The notes below the pieces were generated by a model. That model was not told where the DNA came from. It saw nothing but the letters and a program-made list of their open reading frames with translations, and did no database searches. Source: a virus. Taken from it: DNA of 64,000 nt. Each line of letters begins with the position of its first letter. Within the stretch, counting starts at the first letter, position 1. The position numbers were made by a program, and so were the translations under genes. The stretch is from the IMG/VR virus record IMGVR_UViG_3300043466_002666. One strand, written 5' to 3'. Shown here one piece after another: positions 1,885 to 2,010 of the stretch.

Positions 1885-1891
1885 GTAGTAT

Positions 1892-1978
1892 CGTTCATCC
1901 ACTTATGTGGACGGAAGTAAGCCGACTCGGAACGGATCGTTCATCGGGAAACCGACGCAAAAGCCGACTGAAGGAACG
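1892..1978 (+). ncRNA. Tandem glutamine riboswitch aptamers (glnA / downstream-peptide motif class)
   Basis: Two units, CGTTC-A-TCCAC(TTAT)GTGGA-CGGAAGTAAG-CCGACTC-GGAACG and CGTTC-A-TCGG(GAAA)CCGA-CGCAAAAG-CCGACT-GAAGGAACG. P1 CGUUC/GAACG, the P2 hairpin and the CGGAAGUA / GAAGGAACG segments match the glutamine aptamer consensus. Confidence 0.85.
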
Positions 1979-2010
1979 CTCTTTAACCTAAAAAACTAAG
2001 GAGAAACCTA

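Follow-up and report, generated by a model that had tools for sequence, protein, structure and literature searches.

Comparative data favour two glutamine-sensor cores threaded one within the other in the leader of a small cyanophage gene

The window analysed here, a 64-kb stretch of viral DNA, carries at positions 1890–1982 (plus strand) two glutamine-aptamer-like units, each lacking parts that are present in the other. This raises the question of whether the RNA holds two aptamers in a row or one composite structure. Tandem glutamine aptamers have been known since 2010–2011. The locus belongs to T4-like cyanomyovirus DNA; the closest record, Synechococcus phage S-CREM1, has one annotated 99-nt “riboswitch glnA” in the homologous position. 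Unit 1 contains the GGAAGUA strand of an E-loop (1913–1919) and ends in CUCGGAACG (1926–1934), while in unit 2 the AGUA strand is replaced by CGCAAAAG (1956–1963) and the end reads GAAGGAACG (1970–1978). Both units contain AAGCCGACU (1919–1927 and 1961–1969), and the sequence between them is GAACG-GAU-CGUUC (1930–1942). A first-pass annotation had described all of these features, and their coordinates check out; the range it covered, 1892–1978, coincides exactly with the span of the outer P1 helix described below. It proposed that the first CGUUC pairs with the last GAACG to complete the E-loop, that the inner GAACG and CGUUC close a circularly permuted second aptamer, and that the whole is a single, cooperative two-site sensor and not two independent aptamers.

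Sequence comparison favours two glutamine-sensor cores threaded one within the other, with a common stem, in the leader of a small cyanophage gene, an arrangement that would explain why neither half seems complete alone. We consider it probable that 1890–1982 is a single interlocked RNA of two glutamine-aptamer cores, taking together the nested register and the coupling and ON sense proposed below. The features of the element, all on the plus strand, are as follows.

1892–1896: CGUUC, 5′ strand of outer P1, pairing with 1974–1978 (Rfam covariance model, RNAalifold, MFE fold); invariant in 89/89 aligned relatives
1898–1911: outer P2 hairpin, UCCAC-UUAU-GUGGA (covariance-model alignment, RNAalifold)
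1912–1914: CGG joining strand; G1914 is the predicted linchpin partner of C1979 and corresponds to G22/G23 of glutamine-I (PMC6698751; PMC6212724)
1915–1919: AAGUA, 5′ strand of the E-loop (covariance-model alignment)
1920–1927: AGCCGACU, 5′ strand of helix H (haplotypes, pair counts, MI ranking, independent-pairs sign test)
1929–1935: inner GGAACGG, identical to G35–G41 of glutamine-II; 1930–1934 are the 5′ strand of P1′, and G1935 is the predicted linchpin partner of C1958
1936–1937: A1936-U1937, making with linchpin nucleotide G1935 the GAU loop that closes inner P1′
1938–1943: inner CGUUCA, 3′ strand of P1′ (1938–1942) plus A1943 (pair counts, RNAalifold)
1944–1955: inner P2′ hairpin, UCGG-GAAA-CCGA, covarying in relatives (RNAalifold)
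1956–1961: CGC and AAA joint, with no E-loop strand; CGC matches C17-G18-C19 of glutamine-II, and C1958 is the predicted inner linchpin nucleotide
1962–1969: AGCCGACU, 3′ strand of helix H (same four analyses as its 5′ strand)
1970–1973: GAAG, 3′ strand of the E-loop, partner of 1915–1919 (covariance-model alignment)
1974–1979: GAACG, 3′ strand of outer P1 (1974–1978), and linchpin nucleotide C1979 (covariance model, pair counts, RNAalifold)

The outer core would be a regular glutamine-I (glnA-type) three-way junction, built from P1 (1892–96:1974–78), P2 (1898–1911) and the linchpin G1914:C1979. Its P3 would be no hairpin, being instead an eight-position helix H formed by the two copies of AGCCGACU. 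The inner core would form another three-way junction, this one circularly permuted, with P1′ (1930–34:1938–42), P2′ (1944–55) and the linchpin G1935:C1958, and helix H would serve at once as P3 of the outer core and as the open stem of the inner one.

The Rfam Glutamine model (RF01739) reads 1890–1982 as a single aptamer whose P3 contains an insert of 46 nt (51.4 bits, E = 2.3e-08; cut-off 35), its only match in the window. The alignment pairs the first CGUUC with the last GAACG, sets AAGUA against GAAG and takes AG...CU as P3, so the complete E-loop is assembled across units (1915–19 with 1970–73), as had been proposed. The AGUA and GAA strands that flank P3 in glutamine-I are thus found across the two units and inside neither, the GAAG partner of AAGUA being present in unit 2 only. 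Taken in isolation, units 1 and 2 score 36.2 and 34.6 bits against the same cut-off, and this proximity explains why pipelines may report one element or two. Pattern scans of IMG/VR and JGI metagenomes retrieved 296 distinct complete elements. The Rfam E value together with this recurrence in viral and metagenome DNA shows that the arrangement is not a chance one. RNAalifold, run de novo on 89 distinct aligned relatives (alignment A1) with no input structure, recovered outer P1, the inner GAACG:CGUUC hairpin, P2 and P2′; the outer P2 stem covaries, columns 11:45 being CG in 50 relatives, UA in 30, GC in 6 and AU in 3.

The P1 strands are invariant in the relatives, some of them having been fixed by the search patterns and the parser, so P1 covariation cannot tell the registers apart, and the case lies with helix H, the linchpins and the split E-loop. 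The first-pass annotation had looked to covariation over relatives for a decision; helix H provides one in favour of nesting, and P1 provides none. In the window, 1920–27 lies antiparallel to 1962–69 with six Watson–Crick pairs and two A·C mismatches. Among the 296 relatives, for which three of the scans had deliberately chosen variants on one strand of candidate helix H, the haplotype pairs keep or improve pairing (AGCCAACU/AGUUGACU, AGUUGACU/AGGCAACU, GGACGACG/CGCCGCCC, ...A/U...). The terminal pair is U-A, G-C, A-U or U·G; G-C is replaced by A-U, and C-G by U-A or U·G; the A·C positions are often A-U or U-A; and A-U becomes G-C in GGACGACG/CGCCGCCC. Double changes occur in 4/8 pairs of the helix in alignment A1, where the nested structure has a covariation score of 0.129 vs. 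0.053 when shuffled, a value reached in 0/500 shuffles. When pairs were ranked without bias by MI/APC across 58 core haplotypes, H5_8:H3_1 and the outer linchpin came out as the top long-range pairs.

A tree-aware sign test, based on 220 nt of downstream flank with the trait columns excluded, gave co-change of H5_8 with H3_1 in 16/16 independent contrasts (p about 3e-5) and of H5_5 with H3_4 in 8–9/11 contrasts, with none opposite (p about 0.004). H5_4:H3_5 fell short of significance in this test, with too few independent changes, and covariation of the outer linchpin likewise comprises few independent events (3/4 contrasts, p = 0.25). Helix H is flanked by AAGUA on one side and GAAG-GAACG on the other, which brings the last GAACG beside the first CGUUCA, P2 and CGG and thereby defines the nested register.

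The linchpin of glutamine aptamers is a long-range pair that joins the third position of the CG[N] strand to the nucleotide following GAACG; crystal structures show it as G23:C60 (glutamine-I) and C19:G41 (glutamine-II) (PMC6698751; PMC6212724). In the nested register the window offers G1914:C1979 and C1958:G1935, whereas in the side-by-side register G1914 faces G1935 and C1958 faces C1979, a clash at both sites. Across the 89 relatives, the nested outer linchpin can pair in 98.9% (columns 50:150; GC in 69, CG in 19, other in 1) and the nested inner linchpin in 97.8% (columns 72:128; GC in 86, CG in 1, other in 2), vs. only 24.7% and 22.5% for the side-by-side linchpins. The pairing of the first CGUUC with the last GAACG, together with the E-loop assembled across units and the permuted inner core, is thus strongly supported by the Rfam alignment, RNAalifold, helix H covariation and linchpin compatibility. 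As predicted structure, comparative data show that the register is nested, that helix H is present and that both linchpins are compatible with it, and the element is, by the same evidence, a real, conserved, nested double glutamine aptamer, with glutamine binding as a prediction.

The inner core runs GGAACGG – AU – CGUUCA – P2′ – CGC – AAA and would be closed by helix H. It has no E-loop, and it contains every nucleotide that builds the glutamine-II pocket: in the glutamine-II structure CGUUCA, CGC and GGAACGG supply the pocket helix, both triples and the linchpin, and here their order is permuted. Inner P1′ (columns 66–70:76–80) is paired in at least 88/89 relatives, and its linker varies in sequence and length, from 3–6 nt to a 22-nt hairpin or an insert of ~590 nt with an ORF. 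The permuted second core proposed at first pass agrees with the RNAalifold hairpin and with the fit of the inner linchpin in the relatives.

The strongest alternative is that the element is a single glutamine-I aptamer whose inner core, the relic of a duplicated aptamer, is an inert P3 insert that serves just to support P3 and does not bind glutamine. To the covariance model the inner 46 nt are indeed an insertion, the inner unit is devoid of an E-loop, the linker and the P2′ loop can accommodate large inserts, among them entire ORFs, and tandem glutamine aptamers are reported as non-cooperative in the passage of PMC5066625 that deals with them. Against this, all glutamine-II pocket nucleotides are retained, even among matches of the first scan, whose pattern lay wholly within unit 1 and did not require them. 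About 98% of relatives are compatible with the inner linchpin, and in rare variants with GAACG-C, unit 2 has CGG, so that the inner linchpin switches to G:C. The stem that closes P2′ also covaries around inserted ORFs (UCUAUG/CAUAGA, UCCUAU/AUGGGA, UCCCAU/CUGGGA). Conservation of the pocket strands and covariation of this stem argue that the inner junction is a maintained structure and not debris, and we regard the inert-insert explanation as unlikely.

The inserted ORFs are of several kinds. In 151 unique relatives (L005:2761–2910 and 150 others, e.g. L003, L007 and L029) the P2′ hairpin gives way to a small ORF in the P2′ loop, encoding a peptide of the form MEALILTCLQAQ...DAKAD with a weak PHROGs match to phrog_504, a family without assigned function. 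Its AUG lies at most 12 nt from CGUUCA in 149/151, within the 5′ strand of P2′ (CGUUCA-UCUAUGG). The median length is 51 aa across 149 ORFs, most of them being 50–53 aa, and in 139 of the ORF-bearing relatives the stop codon (UGA or UAA) extends across the final nucleotide of helix H and into the E-loop strand. With start and stop inside aptamer stems, sensor folding and ORF translation must compete. In six relatives (L242, L245, L249, L262, L292 and L305), an ORF of ~65–75 codons occupies the outer P2 loop, about 190–230 nt upstream of CG[N]-AAGUA; its start is in CGUUCA-UCCUAUG, and the stem is closed by AUAGGA immediately ahead of CGG/CGC-AAGUA. Genes can therefore be enclosed by both aptamer stems. 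In two others (L020, minus strand; L054, plus strand), the loop that joins GAACG of unit 1 to CGUUCA of unit 2 is the precise insertion site of an ORF of ~195 aa, whose reading frame continues into the inner core. Near its C terminus this ORF encodes a segment that looks like a helix-turn-helix (…ELGEIYGTSHTSIRRWKK), and it is similar to the homing-endonuclease genes that stand free in phage genomes.

Thermodynamics alone is not decisive between the registers. The folding energy of the element has z = –0.63, the constrained folds of the two registers lie at –24.0 vs. –23.3 kcal/mol, and the core helices at –19.7 kcal/mol nested (–18.6 with H) vs. –15.5 side-by-side; the single-sequence MFE fold contains outer P1 and the SD-sequestering hairpin described below. 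By these models a side-by-side fold with local 2-bp mini-P3s could form in the window sequence and be populated without ligand. This bears on a second alternative, in which the RNA would switch from the side-by-side register (apo) to the nested one (glutamine-bound) by swapping its identical P1 strands. The four strands are indeed interchangeable, the constrained folds differ by less than 1 kcal/mol, and glutamine-II RNA swaps strands into dimers in crystals (PMC6698751). Set against these points, the 89 aligned relatives yielded no conserved feature specific to the side-by-side register, and H5_8 is G or A in many relatives, which removes the local mini-P3 pair. We judge such register switching very unlikely.

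IMG/VR viral contigs also provide a natural control, in the form of 13 unique true side-by-side glutamine-I doublets. Every unit of these doublets has AAGUA, its own P3 hairpin and GAAG, 25/26 units combine CGG with GAACG-C, and the linkers are 5–10 nt. The window element departs from them in exactly the ways that a swapped topology predicts. That the window holds two independent side-by-side aptamers (a pseudo-cooperative tandem), each with a local P1, is the least credible reading and already disfavoured: each unit alone scores near the Rfam cut-off, in Weinberg's 2010 alignment the motif is unit 2, with unit 1 left as flanking sequence, glutamine doublets are classed as pseudo-cooperative by Sherlock 2022 and local mini-P3s can form, but the local linchpins pair in 23–25% of relatives and clash in the window, the closing pair of the mini-P3s is kept in less than 45% of relatives, the register's covariation (0.004) does not exceed that of shuffled alignments (0.005), neither unit has both E-loop strands, the 3-nt linker holds no expression platform, a single SD hairpin follows, and genuine doublets look different. 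These results bear out the earlier statements that neither unit has a normal P3 and that the two are not independent aptamers.

The true side-by-side doublets are a second class of phage glutamine doublet. Ten of them (L510, L513, L525, L547, L556, L570, L575, L586, L593 and L601) lie behind TATAAATA-like late promoters, and true doublets precede different small genes (MTKYQ..., MTLWTRYCR...). The doublet pattern AAGTA-N9-GGAACG-N2-6-CGTTCA had no match in 401 sampled cyanobacterial genomes (0/401). Matches to CGGAACG-N3-CGTTCAT in genome contigs (L121–L240) were attributed to chance in unrelated bacteria and left out.

Downstream of the nested element, the plus strand continues as follows.

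1979–2003: expression platform; the anti-SD CUCUUUA (1979–1985) pairs with UAAGGAG (1997–2003), the Shine–Dalgarno (SD) sequence (MFE fold)
2011–2157: regulated ORF, a 48-aa YRG-motif peptide (MSQATYRGAHYD...)
2162–2184: terminator-like hairpin that ends the unit

There is one SD-sequestering hairpin only, and it begins at the outer linchpin nucleotide, C1979. Other classes of relatives keep this design with different sequences, and it is analogous to the gifB leader of Synechocystis, in which the homologous C, together with the nucleotides 3′ of it, pairs with the RBS (PMC6212724). The 48-aa peptide had no Pfam match at E ≤ 1; in PHROGs it falls to phrog_545 and phrog_5049, both without assigned function. 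A relative's peptide scores below the threshold of DUF4278 (PF14105; 22.4 vs. 25.3 bits), with the YRG motif alone in common. Upstream, a candidate T4-late-promoter-like motif, AATAAATA, lies at 1877–1884, 6 nt from the element. The palindrome TTCGGA-TT-TCCGAA (1863–1876) is just upstream of this motif, and a sigma-70-like promoter on the minus strand (1861–1832) points the opposite way.

For gifB it has been proposed that glutamine forms the linchpin, reorients P3 and melts the RBS helix, giving an ON switch (PMC6212724). From this proposal we expect by analogy that glutamine would turn translation of the YRG peptide ON. In the mechanism we envisage, glutamine would be bound in both pockets; folding of the inner junction would stabilise the weak helix H and so pre-organise the outer pocket; and glutamine in the outer pocket would form G1914:C1979, opening the anti-SD helix and allowing translation. 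Ligand binding by glutamine-I reorients P3 relative to P1 and P2, so the occupancy of one pocket would tune the other; with P3 common to both junctions, either junction should respond when the other is reoriented or stabilised. This two-site sensor, in which a glutamine-I-type junction and a permuted glutamine-II-type pocket would be coupled via a weak shared helix, and in which the RNA of relatives would be sensor and message in one, is put forward tentatively, its chances being somewhat short of even. Speaking against cooperativity, Ruff et al. 2016 (PMC5066625), in a passage citing Ames & Breaker 2011 in which the architecture is unspecified, give tandem glutamine aptamers as non-cooperative in vitro.

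Compared with known systems, the outer core resembles glutamine-I (RF01739, gifB leader; structure by Ren et al. 2015, as summarised in PMC6698751 and PMC6212724) in its P1 CGUUC/GAACG, P2, CGG, AGUA/GAA E-loop and G:C linchpin. The gifB leader is also alike in lying in the 5′-UTR of a YRG-type small protein, with an anti-SD helix starting from the linchpin C. Unlike the local hairpin of glutamine-I, P3 of the element appears to be the inter-unit helix 1920–27:1962–69, a duplex of two AGCCGACU copies that opens into a second aptamer core, giving two predicted pockets in 93 nt. The inner core shares CGC, GGAACGG, a C:G linchpin and the absence of an E-loop with glutamine-II (Downstream-peptide motif, RF01704; PMC6698751), but instead of an H-type pseudoknot it would be a three-way junction in which GGAACGG precedes CGUUCA and P1′ is closed by a loop. 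The element does not belong to glutamine-II as defined by that topology or by the RF01704 model, which gives 21.1 bits for the element against a cut-off of 33, and 18.4 and 12.4 bits for the two units.

Side-by-side tandem glutamine aptamers, of which 157 doublets are given in PMC9481103, likewise occur in marine and phage DNA and have two cores in one leader, separated by a few nucleotides. They consist of two complete units with their own P3 hairpins, whereas the halves of the window element appear exchanged, with one helix shared; complete units each with its own expression platform, as in independent tandems, are not what it contains. The tandem glycine riboswitch also combines two homologous aptamers for one amino acid, one expression platform and interdependent domains, and the element has the corresponding layout of two cores with the same predicted ligand before one anti-SD/SD hairpin. 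The glycine domains are serial and dock by tertiary contacts, whereas here the secondary structure would be nested and one domain circularly permuted. In the strand swap seen in vitro and in crystals, a glutamine pocket is assembled from strands of different units, as in the element; that swap is intermolecular, whereas the one proposed here is intramolecular, genome-encoded and conserved.

In the passage of PMC5066625 on this subject, tandem glutamine aptamers are taken as side-by-side units and no benefit of the arrangement is identified. Full-text literature searches found no nested description, Ames & Breaker 2011, which may hold one, having been beyond their reach. The nested, strand-swapped architecture would offer a structural answer, as neither unit completes an E-loop or linchpin alone, and would account for the inconsistency of model-based scans. 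An aptamer that is circularly permuted and sits within the stem of a second one would be a rare natural case. The element would also provide a compact 93-nt target for studying allostery between two amino-acid pockets, and it suggests that cyanophages carry their own tuned sensor of nitrogen status.

A related observation concerns a singlet glnA RNA, JCVI_SCAF_1096627355794 (glnA.sto, PMC2864571), which has only CGCCGACU between AAGUA and GAAGG. One copy of the quasi-palindromic GCCGAC motif replaces P3 in this RNA, raising the question of pairing in trans for such singlets.
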